From assembly GCA_049599475.1 (NCBI GenBank), contig JBMYOQ010000105.1, positions 1 to 12,197 of the forward strand: 12,197 nt of DNA. The letters are read 5' to 3'. Below, piece by piece: positions 1 through 12,197 of the stretch. Both the position numbers and the translations under genes were made by a program. Source of the stretch: Opitutales bacterium. Its GTDB lineage: Bacteria > Verrucomicrobiota > Verrucomicrobiia > Opitutales > JABSRG01. Under the pieces are notes generated by a model, which had not been told where the DNA came from, ran no database searches, and worked only from the letters and a program-made list of their open reading frames with translations. The stretch's first letter is position 1. Each line of letters starts with the position of its first letter.

Positions 1-2
1 GG

Positions 3-49
3 GGTCGTCGGCTTCTACCAAAATAAACGAAAACACTTTTGAGAACCGA
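3..49 (-). repeat. Left copy of a 47-bp inverted repeat bounding the window; includes a truncated GTAG-type REP pointing outward
   Basis: 3..49 GGTCGTCGGCTTCTACCAAAATAAACGAAAACACTTTTGAGAACCGA equals the reverse complement of 12151..12197 at 46/47 positions (mismatch at position 21). Confidence 0.92.
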
Positions 50-103
50 TATAAATGGCTTCAATAAGATCTGGGGGGGCACTGACGACAGGCTGTCTCA
101 ATA

Positions 104-414: not shown

Positions 415-1419
415 TCACTGACTATCCGGCTTCAGTGAAACCTTCCGCTTTTTCTCCTCGTCCCAGAACAAGCAAATGAAGGACCTACGAAAATCTGACC
501 AAGTCAACGGTTCGACCGCAGCCACTTCAGGAATAGCCCGACGTACGGCTTCGAGGCGATAATTTGGGATTTTCATATTCAAATGATGCACATGGTGCAG
601 TCCGATATTCGCAGTAAACCAAGTGAACGGCTGGAAGAACTTGATATAGCTCGAGCCATGGAGCGCAGCGTCTTGAAACTCCCAATCGTCATTCCACTCA
701 AAATAGCTGTGCTCAAAATTGTGCTGTATCCAAAAAAGCAAGCTACCGAGACCTCCCGTTAAGAAATAGGAAGGAAATACGACGAGAAAATAAGTCGCCC
801 AACCCAGCCAATAACAGAGGAGTGCTTGAAGGATGAAGGCTCCGATATGAGTCACCCAAATGCTCCGGATGAGCTCCTCCCGCTTGGGCACCTCCCATTT
901 AAATTTCTCTCTAAATAGAAAAAAGCCCTTATAAGAACGCCGTCTGAACCCAATGCTGTAGATCCCATAGATCATCACACCGATGGTGGATACTTTTGCG
1001 TATGCTAGGTCGACCAGATGGGGGTCTTTCTTCGCCTCTTCAACGGTCGGCGGACTGTTCACCGAATCGACTCCGCGCTTCGAGAGATTGCCCTGATGCA
1101 AGTGATGCCAGCGATGCTCCGAGCGCCAGAGTTCATAGGGGACAGTAGTGATCCAGGCCAAAACATGGCCAACTATATCGTTGGTTCGGCTTCTCAAAAA
1201 TAGATTTTGGTGCCCACAATCATGCTGGAGCACAAACAACCGCATAATCAGCATGCCCGAAAGGAAGAAACATAAGATGTTTACCCAAATGCTATCCGTT
1301 TGATCCACCCACACCCAGAGGCCAAACCACAGCGCCGCTGTCGAGAACACCTGCCATAAGGAAATGATCAAGCTAGGGCGATAGAGCTCCTTGGGAATTC
1401 TGATCTTATTTTCAGGCAT
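415..1419 (-). CDS. Membrane-bound acyl-lipid fatty acid desaturase, Bacillus Des / DesA-like (334 aa)
   Basis: Three His boxes: HDCGH, HRWHH, HHVHH. Family-typical segments GNLSKRG, LFWIQHNFE, ALHGSSY, NIGLHHVHHLNMKIPNYRLE, plus hydrophobic segments. Start placed at ATG 1419 (MPENK); the longer ORF start at 1647 overlaps the FAR gene. Confidence 0.9.
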   Translation of the reverse strand: MPENKIRIPKELYRPSLIISLWQVFSTAALWFGLWVWVDQTDSIWVNILCFFLSGMLIMRLFVLQHDCGHQNLFLRSRTNDIVGHVLAWITTVPYELWRSEHRWHHLHQGNLSKRGVDSVNSPPTVEEAKKDPHLVDLAYAKVSTIGVMIYGIYSIGFRRRSYKGFFLFREKFKWEVPKREELIRSIWVTHIGAFILQALLCYWLGWATYFLVVFPSYFLTGGLGSLLFWIQHNFEHSYFEWNDDWEFQDAALHGSSYIKFFQPFTWFTANIGLHHVHHLNMKIPNYRLEAVRRAIPEVAAVEPLTWSDFRRSFICLFWDEEKKRKVSLKPDSQ

Positions 1420-1567
1420 AATTTCTAAGCTAGATGAATACCGCTCGTGAATACAAGCAAAGGCAACGCCACCACGCCATTTATATCCAGCGTCGATAAG
1501 TTCTATCACGAATTTTGTAGACTGGAATGCGATCCGCGCCATTAACGAGGGGGACTCACTCACCTCC

Positions 1568-3052
1568 ATGTCTGACAATATTTCCATATACCAGAGCTTT
1601 CGCGACAAGCGCGTGTTTCTCACTGGGGCAACAGGCTTTCTTGGCAAAGCAATTGTTGAGCGCCTCCTCGCAGTGGGTGTCGCACAGGTGTATGTCCTGA
1701 TTCGATCTTCGAAACGGCAAACTGTGGACGAGCGATGGCATCAATGCTTCGGCGAAAATCCGCTCTTTGCTGCCTATCAGGAAGATAAAAACTCGGAATT
1801 CGCAGAGCGCGTCGTTCCGCTCGAGGGCGATGTCGGCAAAGAGGGGCTAGGCCTATCACCTGAGACACGTTCGCTACTAGTGAACACGATCGACATCGTA
1901 ATCAACTCTGCAGGCCTCGTAAAATTTCATGCGCCCTTGGATCAAGCCTTAGATGTAAATATTCGGGGAGCCCTCAGAATGCTGGAGCTGGCGCAGGAGG
2001 CCGGCGCAAAATGTATCCATATTTCAACGGCATTCGTAAATAGTCACCGGAAGGGCGCAATCAGCGGCAGCTTCGAGTCTTTTGATAATGCGATCTCAGG
2101 TTCAGCGTATCCATCCGAGCAATCACTTGAGCAAGAAACCGCATTTTTACAGTCCAAAGTCAGCGAACTCGAAAAGACCGATGATGCCAAACGGAAGTCA
2201 CGGCGTCGATTAAACGAGCGGCTGAGCGATGCCGGACGAGAGATCGTTGATCAGCGCGGCTGGCCTAATATCTATACCTACACAAAATTTCTTTCGGAAT
2301 TTAATCTGAGAAAACACCGTAAAGGCTCCCCCCTGGCTATTGTTCGCCCATCAGTTATCTGGGCGGCACGACAATTCCCCTACCCCGGCTGGATCGAGGG
2401 CGCTCGCAATATCGACCACATGATCCTGGCTTATGGGAATGGCGATTTCAACCGATTCCCCGCAAATCGTTTCCACAGTCTGGATGTCATTCCTATCGAT
2501 GATGTAGTGCACGCTGTGCTAGCATCCGCAGCCGGCTTGGACCGCGAGCCCGAGCTCCTAGTTCAAGTCAGCTCCTCGGAAGCAAACCCAATGCAGTTTC
2601 ACCAGCTAGCGCAATCGGCATATCAGTATTTTACTGAGAATCCCGTTCGCAGATCCGACGGCAGCCCGATACCCGTAAAACCATTTGCATTTGCTTCGCA
2701 CTGGTTCTTTCGGATCGCCATGAAACTTCGAGCAGGCCTCTGGAGCGGGACAGAAGGGATCCTTTCACGTTTGCCCGATTCCATAAAACCGAAGGAGCTC
2801 AGTCGCACTGCTGCAGTCGGCAAACGAAACCTCGATCGCGACAAAGAAATTTTCGAGCTATTCTGGGAATTTTGCAGCGGTCTACGTACCTTCAGCGCAA
2901 ATACAGCAATCGATCTCACACAATTGCTGCCCACCAATGAACAAAGGGATTTCAACTTCGACCCCCGCTCGATCGAATGGGATAAATATCTGCGTCAGTG
3001 CCATATCCCTTCTTTGACGAAAGAAGCCGTATCCTTCGAATTTTCGGAATAG
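1568..3052 (+). CDS. Fatty acyl-CoA/ACP reductase (alcohol-forming FAR; extended SDR plus male-sterility C-terminal domain)
   Basis: VFLTGATGFLGK Rossmann motif, INSAGLVKF, HISTAFV, catalytic WPNIYTYTK (YxxxK), IVRPSVI, PYPGWIEG, DVIPID, and C-terminal FNFDPRSIEWDKYL. 494 aa, with architecture like plant, insect and Marinobacter single-unit FARs. Confidence 0.9.
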   Translation: MSDNISIYQSFRDKRVFLTGATGFLGKAIVERLLAVGVAQVYVLIRSSKRQTVDERWHQCFGENPLFAAYQEDKNSEFAERVVPLEGDVGKEGLGLSPETRSLLVNTIDIVINSAGLVKFHAPLDQALDVNIRGALRMLELAQEAGAKCIHISTAFVNSHRKGAISGSFESFDNAISGSAYPSEQSLEQETAFLQSKVSELEKTDDAKRKSRRRLNERLSDAGREIVDQRGWPNIYTYTKFLSEFNLRKHRKGSPLAIVRPSVIWAARQFPYPGWIEGARNIDHMILAYGNGDFNRFPANRFHSLDVIPIDDVVHAVLASAAGLDREPELLVQVSSSEANPMQFHQLAQSAYQYFTENPVRRSDGSPIPVKPFAFASHWFFRIAMKLRAGLWSGTEGILSRLPDSIKPKELSRTAAVGKRNLDRDKEIFELFWEFCSGLRTFSANTAIDLTQLLPTNEQRDFNFDPRSIEWDKYLRQCHIPSLTKEAVSFEFSE

Positions 3053-3067
3053 TTGAAGCAAGTAGAA

Positions 3068-3694
3068 ATGACGTTAAGATTTATATTCGATTTCGATGGA
3101 GTGCTGTGCGATTCAGAGGAGCACGCGTTTGAAGTATTGAATTACTTGGCGCCTATCCACCGCTACCAAGTGGCCGTGGATCGTGAGGAGTTAAGACGCC
3201 TCTCCGCCAGACAAATCATGGATATCTGTGGAGTGCCTCTCTGGAAAGTACCGATCATTTCCTGGCACGCCTGTTTCGTATCACGGAACCGAGGCCCCGA
3301 CATGGAACTATTTCCCGAAGTAGTCACTGTTCTTAAGGAGCTGCTCAAGGAGAATTTCGACATCCACATTGTGACCAGCAACGGTGCCCGCTACGTAAAA
3401 TCGATCATGCAACGCTACGAACTTCCGATTCGTAGACTGATTCCTCATACAAACATGCTCGGAAAGGCACGGCATATAAAGAAACTCATGCGCTCCTTTC
3501 CCGAAAATGATCCCGTAATCTATATCGGCGATCAAGTCGCGGATATAGAGGCTGCTCAGAAAGCTGGCTGCCTTTCGGGAGCTGTTGCGTGGGGCTTTAA
3601 TCATCCCGACCTGCTGAAGACAACGTCCCCAGATCATTTTTTCGAATCTCCCGAGGAATGGCGGGATTTATTTTTCGAGAAATCGGGAAAGTAG
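3068..3694 (+). CDS. HAD-superfamily phosphatase (Gph/PGPase-like)
   Basis: Motif I FDFDGVLCDS, motif II IVTSN, motif III GK, motif IV YIGDQVADIEAA, and AVAWGF. Start is ATG 3068 or TTG 3053 (the latter abuts the FAR stop). Confidence 0.9.
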   Translation: MTLRFIFDFDGVLCDSEEHAFEVLNYLAPIHRYQVAVDREELRRLSARQIMDICGVPLWKVPIISWHACFVSRNRGPDMELFPEVVTVLKELLKENFDIHIVTSNGARYVKSIMQRYELPIRRLIPHTNMLGKARHIKKLMRSFPENDPVIYIGDQVADIEAAQKAGCLSGAVAWGFNHPDLLKTTSPDHFFESPEEWRDLFFEKSGK

Positions 3695-3722: not shown

Positions 3723-4880
3723 CTATTTCGCCTGCTTCTCAGTCGGCGTATATTTCCAACCTGTATCCGCCCTGTAGACGACATTGCAACCCTTCGCTAT
3801 GCGCCACAGGGCCTGAGGAATGGGCGTCGGGTCAAATTTATAGAGATCCGGGTAAGCATCTCTCAAGGCTGCGGTCGCGCGCCGAGCGTGATAATGCGGT
3901 ATGCGCGAATTGATGTGGTGAGCTACATGCGTGCTGCCAATGTTGTGGTGTAAGAAATTGAGAATGGGTCCATAAGGCCGATCTACCGTGGAAAAAGCGC
4001 CAACAGTCCACGACCATTCACTTTCGTCGAAGTGTGGGACATCGACATCGGTATGCTGTAACCAGGTATACAATATCAGCCAAAAATTTACCACGAGGTA
4101 AGGCCCAACATACAGGGCCAGAACCGGAACAATTGAGCCAGCTGCAACCGCCCACCATACCAGCACACCCAAAAAGCCAATTACGCCCAGATCCGAAATC
4201 CACATTTTGGTATGCATGCGACGTGGAAACAGCGAGGTCGCGAATGGCTTCAACGGCCAGAAATGATTGGTGATTCCACGCTTCGGGCCTCCACTCAATC
4301 CGACAAGCAGATATAGGGGCCATCCAATCAAGAATTTACTGAGCATGCTGAAGATCGCGAAGGCGTCGTCACCCAGAAATTTCTCAAAGTCGCTCATTGC
4401 CTTGCCAGCCTTGGTGGTCTGACGGAGCGGCACAAAAGTCTCACCCTCATCGAGGTGATTCGTCTTAGAATGGTGCACGGCATGACTCCGTTGCCAGGAA
4501 TAGTAGGGTACCAGCAGAGCCGAATGCAGGACAAAGCCCACGGTATCTTGAACCCATTTTTGTCGAGCAAATGCACCATGCCCACATTCATGAGCAATTA
4601 CCCAGCAACCCGTAGCGACGGTGCCTGTGATAATCGCATAAGCGATCCAAACAGGCAGCCAAGCCCAGGTCATTGGAATGAAAAGATATCCGACACCCCC
4701 GAGGCCCAGCGTAAGCCCGACCGAGATAAACAAATAAATCGAGGATCTCAGAAGACTGATATTGAAGCAGTCTTTGGGTATTCTGGAAATTACCTCACGT
4801 TGCGGAGGCACAGGAATTTTGGCGGCCCGAGCCCTTCGGACATTCTCACTTTGGGCAATCTCTGGATTCAAATCAGACAC
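3723..4880 (-). CDS. FAD2-like omega-6 / Delta-12 fatty acid desaturase
   Basis: WVIAHECGHGAF, LLVPYYSWQRSHAVHH, TWLQHTD, STVDRPYG, HHNIGSTHVAHH..SRIPHYHA; N-terminal IPKDCF..SLLRS. GTG start, 385 aa. Confidence 0.92.
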   Translation of the reverse strand: MSDLNPEIAQSENVRRARAAKIPVPPQREVISRIPKDCFNISLLRSSIYLFISVGLTLGLGGVGYLFIPMTWAWLPVWIAYAIITGTVATGCWVIAHECGHGAFARQKWVQDTVGFVLHSALLVPYYSWQRSHAVHHSKTNHLDEGETFVPLRQTTKAGKAMSDFEKFLGDDAFAIFSMLSKFLIGWPLYLLVGLSGGPKRGITNHFWPLKPFATSLFPRRMHTKMWISDLGVIGFLGVLVWWAVAAGSIVPVLALYVGPYLVVNFWLILYTWLQHTDVDVPHFDESEWSWTVGAFSTVDRPYGPILNFLHHNIGSTHVAHHINSRIPHYHARRATAALRDAYPDLYKFDPTPIPQALWRIAKGCNVVYRADTGWKYTPTEKQAK

Positions 4881-4944: not shown

Positions 4945-5208
4945 TCAGCCCTGCTCTTCTTGAGTTTTGATTATCAAATCAACCGTCGCGGACACTTTGG
5001 AATCTAAGCTATCCACATCGTCGTCATCGAATTCCACGTCGAAGCGATCTTCTGCCTTAGCGATGATGTTTACGATCTCCGCAGAGGGGGCTCCCAAGTC
5101 AGTAATGAAGTCTGTATCTTCGGTAAGACCGTCAACCTTGTCCTGGTTTACAGTATTCACTGTTTTGAGTATTTCTTTAATTTCCTGCAGTACTTCGCTA
5201 CGGTCCAT
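4945..5208 (-). CDS. Acyl carrier protein (atypical attachment motif)
   Basis: 87 aa and very acidic. Fold signature TEDTDFITDLGAPSAEIVNIIAKAEDRFDVEF; the Ser is at the phosphopantetheine position, but the context is GAPSA rather than GxDSL. Confidence 0.88.
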   Translation of the reverse strand: MDRSEVLQEIKEILKTVNTVNQDKVDGLTEDTDFITDLGAPSAEIVNIIAKAEDRFDVEFDDDDVDSLDSKVSATVDLIIKTQEEQG

Positions 5209-5481
5209 GGGTGTCAGTCGATTGAGATTAATTCTTTAATTCGTGGGGCGGGGTGCTTTCTTCGATAGCCATCTGAGCGCTCTTGGAAAGGTCAAAATTT
5301 AAAGCTGCCCTCAGCAGAAACCAAACCACCCCTCGCGACCGGTCACCATAAGGGAAAATTGGATACTCCGACTGGTGTCGGCAACGGGTGTAAATAGAAC
5401 TGCGGGTATTCCTAATGCTGTCTACCCGATCCCGGCTGATACGGAGAGAGTGTCTCAAAAGTCTGGATTAAGGCAACTTCG

Positions 5482-5578
5482 GGTAGTGCCCGTTCACCGC
5501 AACGGGCATAATTCGGCCTTGGCTGCTTGGTTTGCTCGGGCTGACGCGCTCATGCCGGTTCGGTGAACCGGCGCCACC
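5482..5578. repeat. REP doublet (REPIN-like), copy 2
   Basis: GGTAGTGCCCGTTCACCGCAACGGGC (+) and GGTGGCGCCGGTTCACCGAACCGGC (-). The spacer is the inverted homologue of that in 104..199. Confidence 0.85.
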
Positions 5579-5626
5579 ATTTTAAGGCACCTTACAAAAA
5601 TTTCTTTCTTGGTCTCTGCCCGATTC

Positions 5627-5654
5627 TAGACATTGAATTCACGGTGAATGTCTA
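5627..5654. promoter_or_regulatory. Candidate operator palindrome in the divergent ACP / acyltransferase-FAS promoter region
   Basis: Perfect 8-bp arms TAGACATT-N12-AATGTCTA, with an overlapping second dyad ATTCAC-G-GTGAAT (5637..5649), about 125 bp upstream of ATG 5781. Confidence 0.4.
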
Positions 5655-5780
5655 ATTTGCTACCACCCTACTCGAGAAAACAGGCCTCTTGCGCAGCATA
5701 CAGGGATTCGGGAGTGGTCACAGATTTCAAGCCGTGCGGGCTCTGAGTTTATTGCTTTCAGACTTTTTAGGAATTCGGGT

Positions 5781-7202
5781 ATGAACATTCTGCGCAAAAT
5801 GGTTTTCTTCGGGGTCCATCAATTCTGTGGAACGGGTATGCGCACCTTGCAAAATTTACAGCTGCATGGCATAGAAAATCTGCCCCAAAGCGGCCCGTTC
5901 ATTATAGCATCGAATCATTGCAGCCACATGGACACTGCGGTCCACTTCCAGGCTCTGGGTGATCGGAAAGGCGATTTGCGGGTCTTAGCTGCGGAGGACT
6001 ATTTCTTTAAGAATGCACTATCCCGCACCCTGGTAGAGTGGATGTTTAACGGACTTCCAATGGGACGAAAGCGGATCAGCCCGAAATTCCTCAATCACTG
6101 CTCGGAGGAGACTGAGAAAGGGAACATAATCCTCATTTTTCCCGAAGGCACCCGTCAGACCTTTCCAGAGATTGCCTCCATTCGAGGCGCCATGGGGATG
6201 CTCGCCGCCCAATGTGGCGTACCCATCGTGCCCGCACGCATATTCGGAAGCCATCGAGCTATGCCCAAAGGGCGCCTACGCATTCATTGCTTTCCGGTAG
6301 AGGCCCATTTTGGCCAGCCCATCATCCCCGACCCGTTGCCTGAAACCGAAGGCACTGAGCGCAAGGCCTACTATGCGCGACTCAATAGCAAAATCGAATC
6401 CCAGCTGAAGGCCTTGAAGCGCCCGAGCAAAGGACGCGCATTGGTGACCGGCGCATCTTCCGGAATCGGAGCCGCTTTGGCAGAGGAATCCGCACAAGCA
6501 GGATACGATCTAATCTTGGTCGGAAGAGATCTCGAGCGACTGGAACAAGTGAAGACTCTGTGCGAATCGCGATATGGCATAACAGCTGACACGGAGCGTA
6601 TCGAATTGTCGGATGCAGAGCAGGTGGACTCCTGGCTGAAGCGCCTTGAATCAGATTCTAAGCAAATCGACATCCTCATCAACAACGCGGGCTTGGGCAA
6701 TGCGGGCACTCTGGACAGCGCAGACCCCACGGATTTAGATACATTGATTCAGGTAAATATCCGAGCGCTCACACTCATGACCCGCGCGGTTTTGCCCAAA
6801 ATGAAACAGCAGGGAAACGGGAAAATATTAAACATCGGCTCCGTTTACGGTGTCGCGCCGGTTCCCAGACAAGCAACCTACGGAGCGTCCAAGGCCTTCG
6901 TTCACTCATTCAGCATAGCTCTCCGCGAGGAATTAAAAGGAACAAGTATCACCGTGACCTCAGCCCTCCCCGGCTCCACCGATACCGGCTTTCACAAGCG
7001 CCTAAATATCAGCCTTAAGCGAAAGACCGGATCCATGTCCGCGGAGACCGTTGCCCGAGGCCTCTGGCGCGCTACCCTCGCTGGTAAAGCGACCTACACA
7101 GTGGGCACGCATAATGTCATTTTTGTGAAATTATCCAAAATACTTCCGTCCACTTGGGTGTCCGCGTTTTTGTCGCGCTACAACGCACATCGCGGCTTAT
7201 GA
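5781..7202 (+). CDS. Fusion of a PlsC/LPLAT-family acyltransferase (N-terminal, about aa 1-215) and a classical SDR oxidoreductase (C-terminal)
   Basis: N-terminal: GIENLPQSGPFIIASNHCSHMD (NHxxxxD), LIFPEGTR, VPIVPARIFG, AMPKG, FGQPI. C-terminal: ALVTGASSGIG, INNAG, NIGS, catalytic YGASK, REELKGT. One uninterrupted 473-aa frame. Confidence 0.9.
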   Translation: MNILRKMVFFGVHQFCGTGMRTLQNLQLHGIENLPQSGPFIIASNHCSHMDTAVHFQALGDRKGDLRVLAAEDYFFKNALSRTLVEWMFNGLPMGRKRISPKFLNHCSEETEKGNIILIFPEGTRQTFPEIASIRGAMGMLAAQCGVPIVPARIFGSHRAMPKGRLRIHCFPVEAHFGQPIIPDPLPETEGTERKAYYARLNSKIESQLKALKRPSKGRALVTGASSGIGAALAEESAQAGYDLILVGRDLERLEQVKTLCESRYGITADTERIELSDAEQVDSWLKRLESDSKQIDILINNAGLGNAGTLDSADPTDLDTLIQVNIRALTLMTRAVLPKMKQQGNGKILNIGSVYGVAPVPRQATYGASKAFVHSFSIALREELKGTSITVTSALPGSTDTGFHKRLNISLKRKTGSMSAETVARGLWRATLAGKATYTVGTHNVIFVKLSKILPSTWVSAFLSRYNAHRGL

Positions 7203-7262
7203 ATTGCTTTGACCCGATTTCTCCACGGCTGCATTGCCGTATCGTCACACCTGTAAAATAGA

Positions 7263-8006
7263 ATGCCAAAGACCATCTTAGTAACCGGAGCCAGTCGCGG
7301 TTTGGGCCGCGCGATCGCGGAGCGCCTGGCCGTCGATTATGATCTCATCCTTCACGCAAGTAGTGAAGCGTCCCTCGAAGGGACCCTTGAGGCAATTCGT
7401 GGCAAGGAGCACAACAAGATCGAGATGCTTCCCGCCGACTTCTCATCACCGGAGGAACAGGAAACCTTCTGCAAGGAGCTCAAGAAATTGGCGAAGGACG
7501 GACTGGGTGGTGTCGTTAATAATGCAGGGATCGCGCTCGATAAACCCCTTTTGTATCAGCCCATCAAGGACATTGACCTGATGCTCAATGTAAACCTGCG
7601 CGCACCGATACTCATCGGCAAAACGGCTTTCCGCATTTTCCTGAAACAACAGCACGGCGTGATCATTAATATAGGTTCAATCGCGGGCGAGGTCGGCAAT
7701 GCTTACCAATCCGTCTACGCCGCCACCAAAGCTGCGCTCTCCGGCTTGTCCAAAAGCTGGTCCCAAGAAGCCACTGAGCTGGCCCCAGGCTCTGCTATTC
7801 GAGCCCTCACAATCAATCCTGGCTTTTTCCAAACCGAGATGATCGATAAAATTCCCGAGGCGATCATCGAGACTTACCGCAAACGCATACCCAGCGGCCG
7901 CTTTGGAAACCCGCAAGAGCTGGCAAACTTCGTGGCCTTTCTTTTTGGACCTGATGCCGCCTATCTCAATGGCGTAGACTTTTCGATCAACGGAGGCATC
8001 CGCTAG
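7263..8006 (+). CDS. fabG: 3-oxoacyl-ACP reductase
   Basis: VTGASRGLG, VNNAGI, INIGS, YAATKAAL, NPGFFQTEM, IPSGRFGNPQELA, YLNG..INGG; first gene of a coupled FAS operon. Confidence 0.85.
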   Translation: MPKTILVTGASRGLGRAIAERLAVDYDLILHASSEASLEGTLEAIRGKEHNKIEMLPADFSSPEEQETFCKELKKLAKDGLGGVVNNAGIALDKPLLYQPIKDIDLMLNVNLRAPILIGKTAFRIFLKQQHGVIINIGSIAGEVGNAYQSVYAATKAALSGLSKSWSQEATELAPGSAIRALTINPGFFQTEMIDKIPEAIIETYRKRIPSGRFGNPQELANFVAFLFGPDAAYLNGVDFSINGGIR

Positions 8007-8705
8007 ATGAAAGGAGTTTATACAGGCGACTGCATCGAACTGGACCAGGAAGATATTCATCTACTGCAGGAAAAGCGTCACCCCGTCCAACAGGAGGCGA
8101 TCCGAGATTTGCCCGAGGGGAATAAAGAAGACCTCTTCGCACTGCCTTTGCCTTTCATGGCGGCGGTTCAGACCGCGACAAGTTTCTATGCGAAGGGCAC
8201 CGGTAAATACGGTAAAGGCTACGCCGAGGGCCAATGGAAGGTGGACCCGAACGATCCGTGGTTTTGGTGCCACTTTGTCCGCGACCCGGTAATGCCTGGA
8301 TCTTTGGGCACAGATGGTCTCTTCCAACTTGCCGGAATCTGGGGAGCCTTTACGCGTAAAATTCAAGGGCGCCCACGGGCTCTCGAAGGAAAATTCACCT
8401 ACGATGGGCAGATCTTCCCCAATGCCCAATGTGTGTATTATCGGATCGATGTATCGCGCTTTTTGAAGAATCGACGGCTCATGCAGTTCGACGGACAAAT
8501 TGCCGTGGACGACCCGGAAAATGTGATCTATCGCTACGAAGGCTGTAAGATGGGCTACTTCTTCCGCGAAGAACTCGGAATCCCCGAAGGCCCCGCCAGC
8601 ACGTATTATTCGCCAGACTGGGAAACCTGCCGCGTAAAGGCACTCGAATCCGTCCAAAGCTCTCAACGCCTCTCAGAAGCTTCTGACGCATCCAATTTAT
8701 CATGA
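8007..8705 (+). CDS. fabA: FabA-like 3-hydroxyacyl-ACP dehydratase/isomerase with C-terminal extension
   Basis: GKYGKGY, then WFWCHFVRDPVMPGSLGTDGLFQLAG, matching the FabA signature (CHF..DPVMPG.LG.D..WQ) with catalytic His and Asp; also RALEG and GQIFP. Confidence 0.85.
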   Translation: MKGVYTGDCIELDQEDIHLLQEKRHPVQQEAIRDLPEGNKEDLFALPLPFMAAVQTATSFYAKGTGKYGKGYAEGQWKVDPNDPWFWCHFVRDPVMPGSLGTDGLFQLAGIWGAFTRKIQGRPRALEGKFTYDGQIFPNAQCVYYRIDVSRFLKNRRLMQFDGQIAVDDPENVIYRYEGCKMGYFFREELGIPEGPASTYYSPDWETCRVKALESVQSSQRLSEASDASNLS

Positions 8706-9319
8706 CAGAGAAACTGACTCATTCTTCAAACTTGGCTGATTCGCTCCTGGACTGTCGCCCCGAGGACATTCTTCCCCACGGGCCGTCCAAGCTCTTTGTC
8801 GATTCCTATGTCTGGCATCAACCCGGATTTGGTGGGGCCGCGGCCTACACAGTCACCGAAGAAGATGTTAAGGATCACTTCGGAATCATGCGCGGAGTGG
8901 ACCAAATCGAGTTTTTCGGCCAGGCCATTACTGTTTCCTGCGGCATCCATTATATCGCCCACAAGGAGGGATGGACTCTGGAGCAATTGCACCGCGAAGT
9001 CCTCTTTCTATTCTTAGGCGTCGGCGAAGTGCGCTTTCGCTCGCAGGCCGATGTGGGAGATCGTTTGGTCGCTCTAGGATATTTTACTTTTCACAAATTT
9101 CGCCAAGGCATCACCGACGGAAGAATCTATGTAGTGCCCAAGCATTACGACTTAAAAGAACTTTTTTCGGATTTTAATGAAGAGCGCCTGCGCAATTACG
9201 ACCTCCCCGAAGATTGTCGACTGGTTACCGAGCTCTTTGGGACAACTGGCAAGCTTGTGAAGAAATCCAAACTCGAGGCCAAACGCCAACAAGCCGAAAA
9301 GGAGTCGTCTGCATCATGA
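8702..9319 (+). CDS. Divergent FabZ-like hotdog-fold dehydratase
   Basis: ILPHGPSKLFVD (cf. LPHRYPFLLVD), DHFGIMRGVDQIEFFGQ (cf. HFP...MPGVL.IEA.AQ, His and Glu kept), FLGVGEVRFRSQADVGDRL (cf. F.GID..RFK.PV.PGD.L). ATGA overlaps at both ends. Confidence 0.75.
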   Translation: MTEKLTHSSNLADSLLDCRPEDILPHGPSKLFVDSYVWHQPGFGGAAAYTVTEEDVKDHFGIMRGVDQIEFFGQAITVSCGIHYIAHKEGWTLEQLHREVLFLFLGVGEVRFRSQADVGDRLVALGYFTFHKFRQGITDGRIYVVPKHYDLKELFSDFNEERLRNYDLPEDCRLVTELFGTTGKLVKKSKLEAKRQQAEKESSAS

Positions 9320-10665
9320 GCCGCCGAAAAGTCGCCGTCGTCGGGATGGGAGGCACCTTCCCGACCTGTTCAAATCTCGAAGAGTTCGAGTCTAAACTAT
9401 TCGGAAACAAGACATTGATACGCGAATGGCCCGAAGCCTCCGCCTATGGTAAAAAGCTGAGGTCACACGTTTCTGGATACGTGACGCCCGAAGAAAGCGG
9501 AATCGAGCCCGTGTATTCCAGCATGCTGGAATACTACGTCGAATACTATCGAGACCTTTCCGGAAACATCCCCACCGAAAATTTGGCTACATCAGACTTG
9601 CCATCGATCTGGAGCATGCAAGGCGCCGACCAAGCGGTAAAAATGGCAGGCTGGAGCATCGATGAAGTTTCCTCAGAACAAACCGCCGTTATCTTGGGAT
9701 CAGCAGGTGGCGGCAATGCTATCTTGCGCCCAGGCTGGCACGCATTCTTCGAGAATAATAAGAAATCGCGCTTACTCGGCTCACACAATGTGGACCGTGC
9801 GATGACCTATCGTGAGGCCGCCAATGTCTCCTGCTTTTTGAAGACCAAGGGCATGTGCGAGGGATTAGGCTCAGCCTGTGCGACGGGTTTAGGGAGCATC
9901 GGTTATGCCTACCGAATGATTGCCAACGGATATCAAGAGCGTGCGATTACCGGCGCTGCCGAGGGCACATCCCTGGAATCTTTTCTCGGCTTCGATGCCA
10001 TGAGTGTGCTGAGCCGTGGATTTGCACCTGAGAAAAGCTCACGTCCATTTGCGGCAGACCGCGGCGGCTTCGTCTGCTCCTTCGGAAGCGGTATCGTATG
10101 CCTTGAAAATCTCGAACTGGCCGAAGCTCGCGGGGCGCCCATCCTCGGGGTGATTGAAGGCTACCACAACAATGCCGACGGCGATGGTGACATGTTTTCC
10201 CCCTCATTCGATGGACAGCGCAGGTTATGGCAGGGCTTATTCGCAGATGCAGGATCCGACGCTAAGCCCGACGTCGTCAAGGCTCATGGAACGTCTACCC
10301 CCACAGGCGACGGCTTAGAGCTGAACAGCATCGTTTCCGTTCTTGGCTCAAAAGACTATTTGGTCTCTGCCCCGAAATCGCAATTTGGACATATGCTGGG
10401 TGCAGCGGGATCGGTGGAATTTGTAGTGGCTCTGTTGATGCTCAAACGCAACGAGGCGTCTCCCTGCCAAAATTCAGAAATCCTCAGCGAAGAATTGGAA
10501 GCCTTCCAGACAAGTCCAGAGTGGTCAGGCCCCAAGGAACCCATCGCAGCCTATCGCGACATTTTACCCACCCACGCGACTCCGACACAAATCGAGCGAA
10601 TCGCCTGCCTAAACTACGGTTTCGGAGGCACCAACGCAGCTATAATGATCAAGCGATATGAGTGA
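9316..10665 (+). CDS. Beta-ketoacyl-ACP synthase (FabB/FabF family), 449 aa
   Basis: RRKVAVVGMG, catalytic SACATG, AHGTST..GD..E, KSQFGHMLGAAG, SRPFAADRGGFV, NYGFGGTN; Cys-His-His triad intact. ATG 9316 overlaps the upstream TGA (ATGA). FabB versus FabF cannot be resolved by eye. Confidence 0.92.
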   Translation: MSRRKVAVVGMGGTFPTCSNLEEFESKLFGNKTLIREWPEASAYGKKLRSHVSGYVTPEESGIEPVYSSMLEYYVEYYRDLSGNIPTENLATSDLPSIWSMQGADQAVKMAGWSIDEVSSEQTAVILGSAGGGNAILRPGWHAFFENNKKSRLLGSHNVDRAMTYREAANVSCFLKTKGMCEGLGSACATGLGSIGYAYRMIANGYQERAITGAAEGTSLESFLGFDAMSVLSRGFAPEKSSRPFAADRGGFVCSFGSGIVCLENLELAEARGAPILGVIEGYHNNADGDGDMFSPSFDGQRRLWQGLFADAGSDAKPDVVKAHGTSTPTGDGLELNSIVSVLGSKDYLVSAPKSQFGHMLGAAGSVEFVVALLMLKRNEASPCQNSEILSEELEAFQTSPEWSGPKEPIAAYRDILPTHATPTQIERIACLNYGFGGTNAAIMIKRYE

Positions 10666-11497
10666 TTCTAAAGAAGTTCAACTCCCAGGTATTCAGGGAA
10701 AAACAGCTCTCATTTTTGGAGTAAGAAACGATGCCTCGATAGCCTGGGCCACTGCTGAATCTCTCCATGCTCAGGGCTGCACCGTTGCGCTTAATTATCT
10801 TCCTGATACCCAAGTCGAGGTCGAAGCCCTGGCAAAAAAAGCAGGCATGGATCCAGAGCTCATCCAGCAAGTAGATGTCCGGAAAGAGGCAGAGATCCAG
10901 AGCTTCGTAGATGCCGTCCATAAAAAATCTGGCAATATCGACTTCGTCTTTCATTCGGTCGCCTACGGCAATCATCGCGTAATGTGCAGCAAGGCTCCCG
11001 GTTCTCAGGATGAGCCCACAGATTTCCTAGATATTCCCTTCGATGATTTCATGGATTCATTTAACATTAGCACATATTCTCTGCTGAGGATTTGTAGAAC
11101 CTGTAAGCCCTTCTTAAATCCAGGAGCTTCCGTATTGGCCATGACATACAACGCCTCACAACGCGTGCTGCCCGCCTACGGTGGTATGGCCATCAACAAG
11201 GCTGCCTTGGAGAACTTGACTCAGTACCTCGCACATCATTTAGCCGACACTGATATCAGAGTGAATGCGCTCTCTGCCGGACTGGTCATGACCACTTCCG
11301 CAGCCGGTATCACCGGCGTTCGCAAGATGAGAAAACTCAGCAGACAAATTTCTCCACTAGGTAATGTGAAGGCGCAAGACGTAGCCGACGCCGCCTTGTA
11401 TTATTTTTCCGACCTCTCCCAAAAGGTCACTGGAAACATTCATTATATCGATGGAGGTATCAATATGATGGGGACGGCTGGAAATGAAGGCGCCTGA
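10658..11497 (+). CDS. fabI: Enoyl-ACP reductase
   Basis: GKTALIFGVRNDASIAW, IDFVFHSVAY, NISTYSL, MTY...RVLPAYGGMAINKAALE (Y-X6-K), IRVNALSAG, VTGNIHYIDGG. Confidence 0.9.
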   Translation: MSDSKEVQLPGIQGKTALIFGVRNDASIAWATAESLHAQGCTVALNYLPDTQVEVEALAKKAGMDPELIQQVDVRKEAEIQSFVDAVHKKSGNIDFVFHSVAYGNHRVMCSKAPGSQDEPTDFLDIPFDDFMDSFNISTYSLLRICRTCKPFLNPGASVLAMTYNASQRVLPAYGGMAINKAALENLTQYLAHHLADTDIRVNALSAGLVMTTSAAGITGVRKMRKLSRQISPLGNVKAQDVADAALYYFSDLSQKVTGNIHYIDGGINMMGTAGNEGA

Positions 11498-11882
11498 GCC
11501 AAATCTGGACACATGCGTCGATTTCCCTGTTTTCGTCGGAAACGATCTCGTCCACCTTCCCGGTTTTCGCCAACTGCTCAATCCCTCGTTCATCAGACGC
11601 GCCTACGCCGAGTCCGAAGTAAATTATTGCGAACAATTCGAAGACTCCGGCCTGCGCTACGCTTCAACCTGGGCTGCAAAAGAAGCCACCATGAAAGCAT
11701 TGCGCCAAGCCATCCCAGGATTCACCTGCCCCTGGAAGCAGATTGTTATCCTTCGCGAAAAGGCTTCTGGCATACCCCACGTGCACCTACCCGAGAAGGC
11801 CGGCACAGAGCTTAAAAGCAGACTCACCCTGAGCCACGACGGAGACTACGTTTGGGCCATCGCGCTGATGAGTAAGGCCTAG
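11484..11882 (+). CDS. acpS: Holo-ACP synthase (AcpS-type phosphopantetheinyl transferase)
   Basis: VGNDLV, RYASTWAAKEATMKAL, SGIPHV, LTLSHDGDYVWAIA; 132 aa, overlapping the fabI end by 14 bp. Confidence 0.9.
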   Translation: MKAPEPNLDTCVDFPVFVGNDLVHLPGFRQLLNPSFIRRAYAESEVNYCEQFEDSGLRYASTWAAKEATMKALRQAIPGFTCPWKQIVILREKASGIPHVHLPEKAGTELKSRLTLSHDGDYVWAIALMSKA

Positions 11883-11909
11883 CGTATCCAGTTCCAGCAT
11901 TTTCAGAAA

Positions 11910-11999
11910 GGTAACGCCGGTTCACCGTAACCGGCATGACTCGGTCTTAGCCGAATTAGGCTGTCGCGCTTATGCCCGTTGGTTTCCAAGGGCCCTACC
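11910..11999. repeat. REP doublet (REPIN-like), copy 3, just downstream of the FAS operon
   Basis: GGTAACGCCGGTTCACCGTAACCGGC (+) and GGTAGGGCCCTTGGAAACCAACGGGC (-). Spacer ATGACTCGGTCTTAGCCGAATTAGGCTGTCGCGCTTAT is homologous to copies 1 and 2. Confidence 0.85.
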
Positions 12000-12037
12000 T
12001 TTTCGACCTCAATAAATACACCACGAAAATACTTTCA

Positions 12038-12130
12038 TCACGCCCGCTCCGCTCAAGACGCCAAGACCCAAAGCGTAAACACAGATGAAACCTTTCAGCT
12101 GATTCTTGGGGTCTTCGGGTCTTTGCGTGA
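12038..12130. repeat. Long imperfect hairpin element with 8-nt periodic arms
   Basis: AAGACGCCAAGACCCAAAG (12055..12073) pairs with 12105..12123 at 16/19 positions; the outer TCACGC (12038..12043) pairs with GCGTGA (12125..12130). Confidence 0.65.
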
Positions 12131-12150
12131 AACCCCTAGCAACAATTACG

Positions 12151-12197
12151 TCGGTTCTCAAAAGTGTTTTCGTTTATTCTGGTAGAAGCCGACGACC
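12151..12197 (+). repeat. Right copy of the 47-bp terminal inverted repeat
   Basis: TCGGTTCTCAAAAGTGTTTTCGTTTATTCTGGTAGAAGCCGACGACC is the reverse complement of 3..49 (46/47); it ends within a GTAG-AA-GCCGAC REP-like arm. Confidence 0.92.

Follow-up and report, generated by a model that had tools for sequence, protein, structure and literature searches.

A PlsC-size acyltransferase fused to a classical short-chain dehydrogenase/reductase in Opitutales and its proposed role in AGPS-type ether-lipid synthesis

Described ether-lipid systems and the architecture of the fusion

In eukaryotic ether-lipid synthesis, GNPAT acylates dihydroxyacetone phosphate (DHAP), a fatty acyl reductase (FAR) supplies the fatty alcohol, and Ayr1 or DHRS7B/PexRAP reduces acyl- or alkyl-DHAP. 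Here we describe a gene in a 12,197-nucleotide (nt) stretch of DNA from an uncultured marine Opitutales bacterium (the window), whose product joins an acyltransferase (AT) to a short-chain dehydrogenase/reductase (SDR). On the evidence of gene context it is an ether-lipid gene, and its product probably catalyzes the first and third steps of an ether-lipid pathway of the AGPS (peroxisome-like) type. AGPS itself takes acyl-DHAP as substrate (PMC7517302). The eukaryotic peroxisomal pathway, as described in PMC7517302 and PMC9131029, resembles the one proposed here in having FAR, an AGPS homologue, an HX4D acyltransferase and a classical SDR in the same proposed order, but the fusion AT is of PlsC size and lacks the GPAT_C domain. 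Moreover, eukaryotes fuse FAR with GNPAT (PMC13012113), whereas the window protein fuses the AT with the reductase. The Myxococcus xanthus operon MXAN_1676-1675-1674 (AGPS, FAR-GNPAT and an NAD-dependent epimerase family protein) likewise combines the AGPS route, FAR, an acyltransferase and a candidate reductase; compared by its description (PMC9131029), it has a GNPAT-type AT fused to FAR, whereas here a PlsC-type AT is fused to a classical SDR.

Three further systems were compared. The fusion AT falls within the broad clade of the myxobacterial ElbD-architecture proteins (FAR-ACS-ACP-AT, with acyl-CoA synthetase [ACS] and acyl carrier protein [ACP] domains) of Enhygromyxa and Plesiocystis, and a haloacid dehalogenase (HAD) family gene lies beside FAR as it does for ElbD; unlike ElbD, the fusion has no ACS or ACP domain, FAR is separate, the SDR is fused and AGPS is present. 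FcrA is a proven HMG-CoA reductase (HMGR)-like fatty acyl-CoA reductase whose gene is described beside a PlsC-like gene or AGPS (PMC11948995). Operons of the type FcrA-AT-AGPS-SDR, with or without a second AT (AT2), would encode the same pathway with an AT of the same broad clade, and the HMGR-like gene found with AGPS in 23 of the 55 loci discussed below fits FcrA; the window differs in having FAR rather than FcrA, a fused AT-SDR, an SDR that is not PRK06181-type and no AT2. With PlsC (5KYM, E. coli PlsC and the genome's own cmk-linked plsC product), the fusion AT shares fold, size, HX4D and FPEGTR, but it has AAEDYFF in place of the AR/GK-type loop, HCSHMD as motif I, a separate branch and a fused SDR. 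As judged from these comparisons, the fusion is a new architecture within a known kind of pathway and is not GNPAT, PlsC proper or ElbD. Bacterial AGPS and ElbD homologues have been reported (PMC13159169; bioRxiv 10.64898/2026.06.23.733905), with no such fusion in the available parts of those accounts, and our literature searches, which left subscription journals mostly outside their coverage, found no paper on a PlsC-SDR fusion.

The fusion is encoded by a single open reading frame (ORF) without internal stop, with AGGA 8 nt upstream of its ATG:

5781-7202, plus strand: AT-SDR fusion gene, 473 amino acids (ORF, Pfam, relatives)
5781-6404, plus strand: PlsC-size AT domain, residues 1-208 (NHCSHMD, AAEDYFF, FPEGTR), proposed non-GNPAT DHAP acyltransferase (Pfam, motifs, structure, tree)
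6405-6431, plus strand: basic linker LKALKRPSK (sequence, model)
6432-7199, plus strand: classical SDR domain (TGASSGIG, R249, NNAG, S354-Y367-K371), proposed acyl/alkyl-DHAP reductase (Pfam, structure, tree)

The Pfam Acyltransferase domain covers residues 26-154 (E 9e-21; 74.5 bits versus a cut-off of 23) and adh_short covers residues 220-409 (E 3e-49). An earlier note on this DNA had described an intact NHxxxxD/FPEGTR acyltransferase joined by a basic linker to an intact SDR, and every motif that it named was found: N45HCSHMD51 and F120PEGTR125 in the AT, and T223GASSGIG, N301NAG, S354 and Y367GASK371 in the SDR. The linker (L209KALKRPSK217) is short, basic and located where the last AT helix ends. 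No transmembrane helix was predicted in the protein, and a scan for promoters and terminators gave nothing above chance. In structure models, the AT part was poorly resolved at full length, and the AT-only model was good (predicted local distance difference test, 91).

The fusion is real. A read-through or assembly artefact was rejected, given full-length relatives, the lack of stops and a 41,703-nt contig of sequencing run X1, which may be the source of this DNA; the contig is identical to the window over positions 5600-12197 (0 differences). Run X2 yielded identical short pieces, none of which, among those listed, spans the linker. Four clusters (90%) of full-length fusions, at 100, 79, 58 and 54% identity, were present among the best 120 of 4,955 matches, all with source labels of Verrucomicrobiota or Opitutales, and all 11 members of the 54% cluster have the fusion architecture. 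Orthologues are thus not always two separate genes, a pattern that the earlier note had named as a refutation. With no stop within the match, the fusion was present in three of the seven genomes of the family, namely the bin of the window's organism (G000) and its relatives G005 and G003. It was also found in the relative G407, but not in 400 other sampled genomes of the phylum.

A profile search of 1.84 billion representatives returned seven distant fusions among the best 150 matches: P0383-P0385 (35-38% identity), P0392 (partial), P0389 and P0396 (29-31%, with a different AT type) and P0388, a 998-amino-acid FAR-AT-SDR triple fusion whose single chain would unite three of the pathway's four activities. 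The window-type fusions and P0383-P0385 group together in both domain trees (84 and 98%; all trees reported here are quick trees), and the AT of P0388 groups with ElbD-like domains at 99%. Since P0388 and P0389/P0396 carry other ATs, either the AT-SDR pairing arose repeatedly or the AT was exchanged.

Linkage of the fusion to FAR and AGPS genes

FAR was found, by sequence, in all four fusion genomes. In G407, a convergent FAD oxidase gene follows the fusion, and its product scored 464 bits against guinea-pig AGPS (4BBY) and at most 78 bits against other FAD oxidases; in G005, a convergent AGPS gene stands right after acpS. AGPS is intact in both (motifs GHEPDS, STLGGW, ASxRL and SHHHG). AGPS was not found in bin G000. 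However, the two flanks of the AGPS stretch of G005 both match ends of G000 contigs, none of which is shorter than 3,195 nt. The 41,703-nt X1 contig that carries the window extends 29.5 kb past the window's right end, and an intact AGPS, P0238 (motifs kept, 86% identity to the G005 AGPS), lies on a Logan contig that is also 41,703 nt long. From this equal size and from synteny, P0238 very probably belongs to the window's organism and lies just past the right end of the window. The idea of an organism without AGPS, which the bin had suggested, was overturned by G005 synteny and P0238.

Of the seven family genomes, the three with the fusion are also the three with FAR; AGPS is present in two of these three bins, and the other four genomes have none of the three genes; these genomes are kin and do not count as independent. 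AGPS of this kind was present in 1 of 401 genomes of the phylum. Two of the seven distant fusions lie on contigs equal in size (45,997 and 369,025 nt) to those of P0246 and P0247, which are close AGPS relatives; for the other five, there was no size-matched AGPS contig among 120 of 3,372 AGPS rows. Given this linkage of the fusion with FAR and AGPS, the connection to DHAP and ether lipids that the earlier note had drawn is strongly supported, and we consider glycerone-phosphate lipid chemistry overall highly probable.

Proposed assignment of the two domains to pathway steps

The AT belongs to the PlsC/GPAT superfamily (PF01553) by score, HX4D, FPEGTR and fold, and Thermotoga maritima PlsC (5KYM) was its top match by both sequence and fold. 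The GPAT_C domain (PF19277) of GNPAT and PlsB is not in the fusion protein, whose AT part measures about 208-215 amino acids versus 600-800 for those enzymes. GPAT_C was detected in none of G000, G005, G003, G407 and G004, with a positive E. coli control, nor in any of five genomes that carry a split operon with the AT (AT1) and AGPS as separate genes. Proteins of about 600 amino acids with weak PF01553 matches were rejected as GNPAT candidates, being AT+GNAT proteins. The fusion AT had no NCBIfam match at E<=1e-15 and stayed below the TIGR00530 (PlsC) cut-off. Its motif I, HxSHMD (HCSHMD), and the following AA align with those of E. coli PlsB (HRSHMD), an sn-1 enzyme. In the trees, AT2 grouped with cmk-linked PlsC, and a 99% branch parted AT2 and PlsC-like proteins from the fusion AT, AT1, FAR-AT and ElbD-like domains. 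Forcing the fusion AT together with AT2 and cmk-linked PlsC was rejected (approximately unbiased [AU] test, p=0.003; the test used 39 of 58 rows, the long ones having been left out, and a group chosen once a tree had been seen). The domain phylogeny thus sets the fusion AT apart from housekeeping PlsC.

We then considered 55 genome loci without the fusion that the AT had retrieved. AGPS was present in 30 of them, an HMGR-like gene in 23, an operon SDR in 22, AT2 in 16, FAR in 13 and an ACS domain in 12; 11 had none of AGPS, FAR, HMGR or ACS. The typical split operon reads HMGR-like, AT1, AGPS, SDR, AT2. Tree position and operon place together match the fusion AT to the gene before AGPS, with sn-2 acylation having its own enzyme. 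As AGPS needs acyl-DHAP and GPAT_C was not found, we propose that the fusion AT acylates DHAP. The DHAP acylation suggested by the earlier note is thereby favoured, by context and the PlsB-like motif I; the domain itself, which lacks GPAT_C and lies nearer to PlsC, is not a member of the GNPAT/PlsB family. PlsX and PlsY were found in G000, G005, G003, G407 and G004. The four fusion genomes also have a PlsC of the housekeeping type, so the fusion is accessory; a replacement of missing PlsX/PlsY by the fusion was rejected, both genes being present.

These data bear on a reverse order, in which the SDR would reduce alkyl-DHAP and the AT would acylate the resulting alkyl-glycerol-3-phosphate at sn-2 (steps 3 and 4), acyl-DHAP coming from elsewhere, for example from PlsY accepting DHAP or from the SDR oxidizing lysophosphatidic acid (lyso-PA). 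Consecutive steps would follow the usual logic of fusions, the AT has the size, profile and fold of PlsC, PMC9131029 describes an AGPAT-like AT in ElbD, the genomes have PlsX and PlsY, and locus L096 (12352-13842) holds an SDR-AT2 fusion in reverse order, although the AGPS of that locus is also split and the fusion may be an assembly error. Nevertheless, we consider this order unlikely: it has no identified source of acyl-DHAP (no GPAT_C), split operons have a fusion-type AT before AGPS and a separate PlsC-like AT2 besides, the AU test rejects a union with AT2/PlsC, and the FAR-AT and FAR-AT-SDR fusions mirror FARAT.

The SDR is of the classical type (TGxxxGIG, NNAG, Ser-Tyr-Lys, Rossmann fold) and presumably uses NADP(H), as is indicated by an Arg after strand 2 (R249). 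Its clade (95%), whose signature combines Gln364, a C-terminal NxxR and an S-V-Y that follows the catalytic Ser, holds all the fusions, a HAD-SDR fusion (P0445, a HAD-IB phosphatase joined to an SDR) and stand-alone proteins, one of them in the P0405 cluster on a long contig of Spirobacillus cienkowskii. No stand-alone SVY-type SDR was present in the top 30 loci of 89 matches from 351 Myxococcota genomes, the three best other SDR matches in 301 Verrucomicrobiota genomes were ordinary SDRs, and the ESM Atlas gave generic SDR clusters only. Against the PRK06181 model (NF004825), the fused SDR scored 128 bits, below the cut-off of 215, versus 243-283 bits for the operon SDRs. A PRK06181-type SDR passed the cut-off in none of the four fusion genomes, yet did so in control G408, which suggests that the fused SDR fills a vacant slot. 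In free trees, it was separate from the operon SDRs, but a common clade was not rejected (AU p=0.41).

The best NCBIfam match of the fused SDR was a mycolate reductase, far below the cut-off (159 versus 380 bits), and its best PDB matches were ketone reductases and HSD17B13; Ayr1 and DHRS7B were not among the PDB matches listed. SDR identities rarely exceed 30% even in a family of true acyl/alkyl-DHAP reductases (ADHAPRs), according to PMC13256971. Those matches, and the place of the fusion at the head of a fatty acid synthesis (fab) operon in the window's genus, would suit chemistry that does not involve glycerone phosphate, with the SDR acting as a ketoacyl or aldehyde reductase for the fab operon or FAR and the AT making wax-type or other fatty-alcohol esters. 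However, the fab operon has its own FabG, the fusion of G003 and G407 lies without a fab operon beside AGPS and phospholipid head-group genes, and AGPS would be left with neither substrate nor reductase, so that we judge this alternative very improbable.

In the pathway that we favour, the AT would acylate DHAP with a chain taken from CoA or the cluster's ACP, and so do the job of GNPAT with a PlsC-size fold. The separate AGPS would then swap the acyl group for the fatty alcohol made by FAR, the fused SDR would reduce alkyl-DHAP to 1-O-alkyl-glycerol-3-phosphate, probably with NADPH, and the housekeeping PlsC would acylate sn-2. The neighbouring cdsA, pssA and psd genes of G003 and G407 would yield a plasmanyl-ethanolamine lipid, whereas in the window's genus the dedicated fab operon, desaturases and HAD phosphatase would shape chains and product. 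CarF/PEDS1 (PF10520) matched none of the five genomes, but none of 14 controls matched either; with that limit, plasmanyl rather than plasmalogen lipids are expected. The earlier note had one protein acylating DHAP and then reducing it: both steps fit the context, but AGPS, which acts between them, had been left out, so the expected product is alkyl-glycerol-3-phosphate rather than plain lyso-PA.

Several observations weigh against this assignment. The AT is nearer to PlsC, an sn-2 enzyme, by profile and fold (hhalign 97% versus 63% for E. coli PlsB), and the nearest characterized relatives of the SDR are general ketone reductases. Support for the AT clade is moderate (92 by the Shimodaira-Hasegawa-like approximate likelihood ratio test), some of its members (cdsA-linked or from termite guts) come from loci without AGPS, and its motifs were themselves search patterns, which makes motif counts circular. 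The 30 AGPS loci include many close relatives, and AGPS occurs in only 1 of 43 metagenome loci (many of them short), any of AGPS, FAR, HMGR or ACS in 8. The AGPS link in the window's organism consists of the equal contig size and synteny, not of a sequence reading, and AGPS is frameshifted in G003 and in several assemblies of that species with the fusion intact. We know of no enzyme of the fusion-AT clade whose activity has been measured. ElbD, when isolated, showed no acyltransferase activity, and its AT was called AGPAT-like (PMC9131029). Finally, mammalian ADHAPR beside the DHAP acyltransferase DHAPAT prefers acyl-DHAP (PMC7517302), so that joining the first and third steps in one protein opens the way to a short circuit.

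Such a short circuit is the core of a further alternative, corresponding to the one-protein route of the earlier note, in which the AT product would be reduced at once to ester lyso-PA, bypassing PlsX/PlsY, and the ether lipid would be a side branch or in the course of being lost. The short linker favours direct transfer, the ADHAPR preference points the same way, the fusion stays intact where AGPS is frameshifted, and in termite-gut loci that lack AGPS, an SDR is found together with a related AT. Set against this, PlsX, PlsY and PlsC are present in all four fusion genomes, the fusion is always accompanied by FAR and an AGPS gene in these genomes (counting P0238, assigned as above), and the termite-gut SDR lacks the fusion-SDR signature. 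We regard the bypass as quite unlikely. A broader proposal, which we advance tentatively and hold to be somewhat unlikely as a whole, is that the PlsC-size AT clade represents a second, GNPAT-independent family of DHAP acyltransferases, that SVY/NxxR SDRs are a family of bacterial alkyl-DHAP reductases, and that the fusion, having arisen repeatedly (FAR-AT-SDR included), docks on AGPS at either side of its reaction as a switch: with AGPS and fatty alcohol, ether lipid would form, and otherwise the short circuit would lead to ester lyso-PA, which would explain the intact fusion in strains with a frameshifted AGPS.

AGPS-type ether-lipid synthesis in bacteria is known mostly by homology, and in the parts of the literature consulted we found no measured bacterial DHAP acyltransferase or alkyl-DHAP reductase; nor did we find published lipid data for the window's organism. 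A 2026 GTDB survey, whose main text does not mention Verrucomicrobiota, counts genomes via GNPAT homologues (PMC13012113) and, as described there, would miss genomes like the fusion carriers. The fusion is a compact, testable candidate for ether-lipid synthesis in bacteria without the usual starter enzyme. If the assignment is right, a widespread PlsC-like clade, to which the unassayed AT domain of ElbD belongs, would gain a named function, a family of alkyl-DHAP reductases would be defined in bacteria, and marine bacteria of the Opitutales type would become further candidate sources of alkyl-glycerol ether lipids.

Gene neighbourhood and further loci

The other features of the window are as follows:

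415-1647, minus strand: membrane fatty-acid desaturase, DesA-like below cut-off, start probably near 1419; also beside FAR in G005, G003 and G407
1568-3052, plus strand: fatty acyl reductase FAR (NAD_binding_4 and Sterile domains; Pfam), proposed fatty-alcohol supplier
3053-3694, plus strand: HAD-family phosphatase (Pfam), directly 3' of FAR; kept in G005, not beside FAR in G003 and G407
3723-4880, minus strand: second fatty-acid desaturase (ORF, Pfam)
4945-5208, minus strand: acyl carrier protein, divergent from the fusion (Pfam, NCBIfam)
7263-8006, plus strand: FabG-like ketoreductase (profile matches)
8007-8705, plus strand: FabA-like dehydratase (profile matches)
8702-9319, plus strand: FabZ-like protein (weak match, E 1.5e-4)
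9316-10665, plus strand: FabB/FabF-like ketoacyl synthase (profile matches)
10658-11497, plus strand: FabI-like enoyl reductase (profile matches)
11484-11882, plus strand: AcpS phosphopantetheinyl transferase (Pfam), followed by the convergent AGPS in G005
12143-12197, no strand: half of a dispersed palindromic repeat of about 140 nt, the break point of the binned contig, beyond which AGPS P0238 probably lies

By its His boxes, the second desaturase is probably delta-12/FAD2-like. The gene order of the window is kept in G005 as far as the G005 contig reaches. In G407 and G003, the order is psd, pssA, desA, cdsA, FAR, fusion and convergent AGPS, with no fab operon beside the fusion, and in G003 an S-adenosylmethionine-dependent methyltransferase gene lies between FAR and the fusion (L017:11797-12618), which is not so in G407. 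The frameshifted AGPS of G003 lies at L017:14075-15894, and intact AGPS in two other assemblies of that species (P0374, P0380) marks a polymorphic loss. Across the two genera, FAR is only 33-35% identical (window 1568-3052 versus L017:10303-11745), compared with 54-58% for the fusion and about 70% for AGPS, which suggests a replacement of FAR in one lineage.

Window positions 1-55 and 12143-12197 are halves of the same palindromic repeat of about 140 nt, which recurs at many contig ends and inside several contigs, and a second, diverged repeat lies at about 100-200 and 5480-5580. A third desaturase gene and a membrane metallophosphoesterase gene adjoin the left end of the cluster in G005 (L078:934-3073), and the same pair stands at a contig end in G000 (C72:17768-19971). 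The G005 cluster (L175:1-6237) ends with AGPS and a Fic gene beside tRNA-Pro, as in a genomic island, and contig C26 of G000 ends at the same tRNA.

Related loci elsewhere take other forms. The compact HMGR-like/AT1/AGPS/SDR/AT2 operon (L080-L115, for example L091:8736-13833) is found in marine Verrucomicrobiota, and parts of it occur in several other phyla. On termite-gut contigs (L042-L054, L076), an SDR gene and the gene for a related AT overlap as a pair; this SDR is a different one, and AGPS is missing from these loci. A Dehalococcoidia locus (L084:8099-15073), in whose genome no AGPS was found, encodes FAR-AT, HAD, a Zn alcohol dehydrogenase, a LarA-like protein and a diacylglycerol kinase, an Elb-like set. 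Lastly, G407 encodes a HAD-AT fusion (L146:754-2039), a further PlsC-family protein in a fusion genome.

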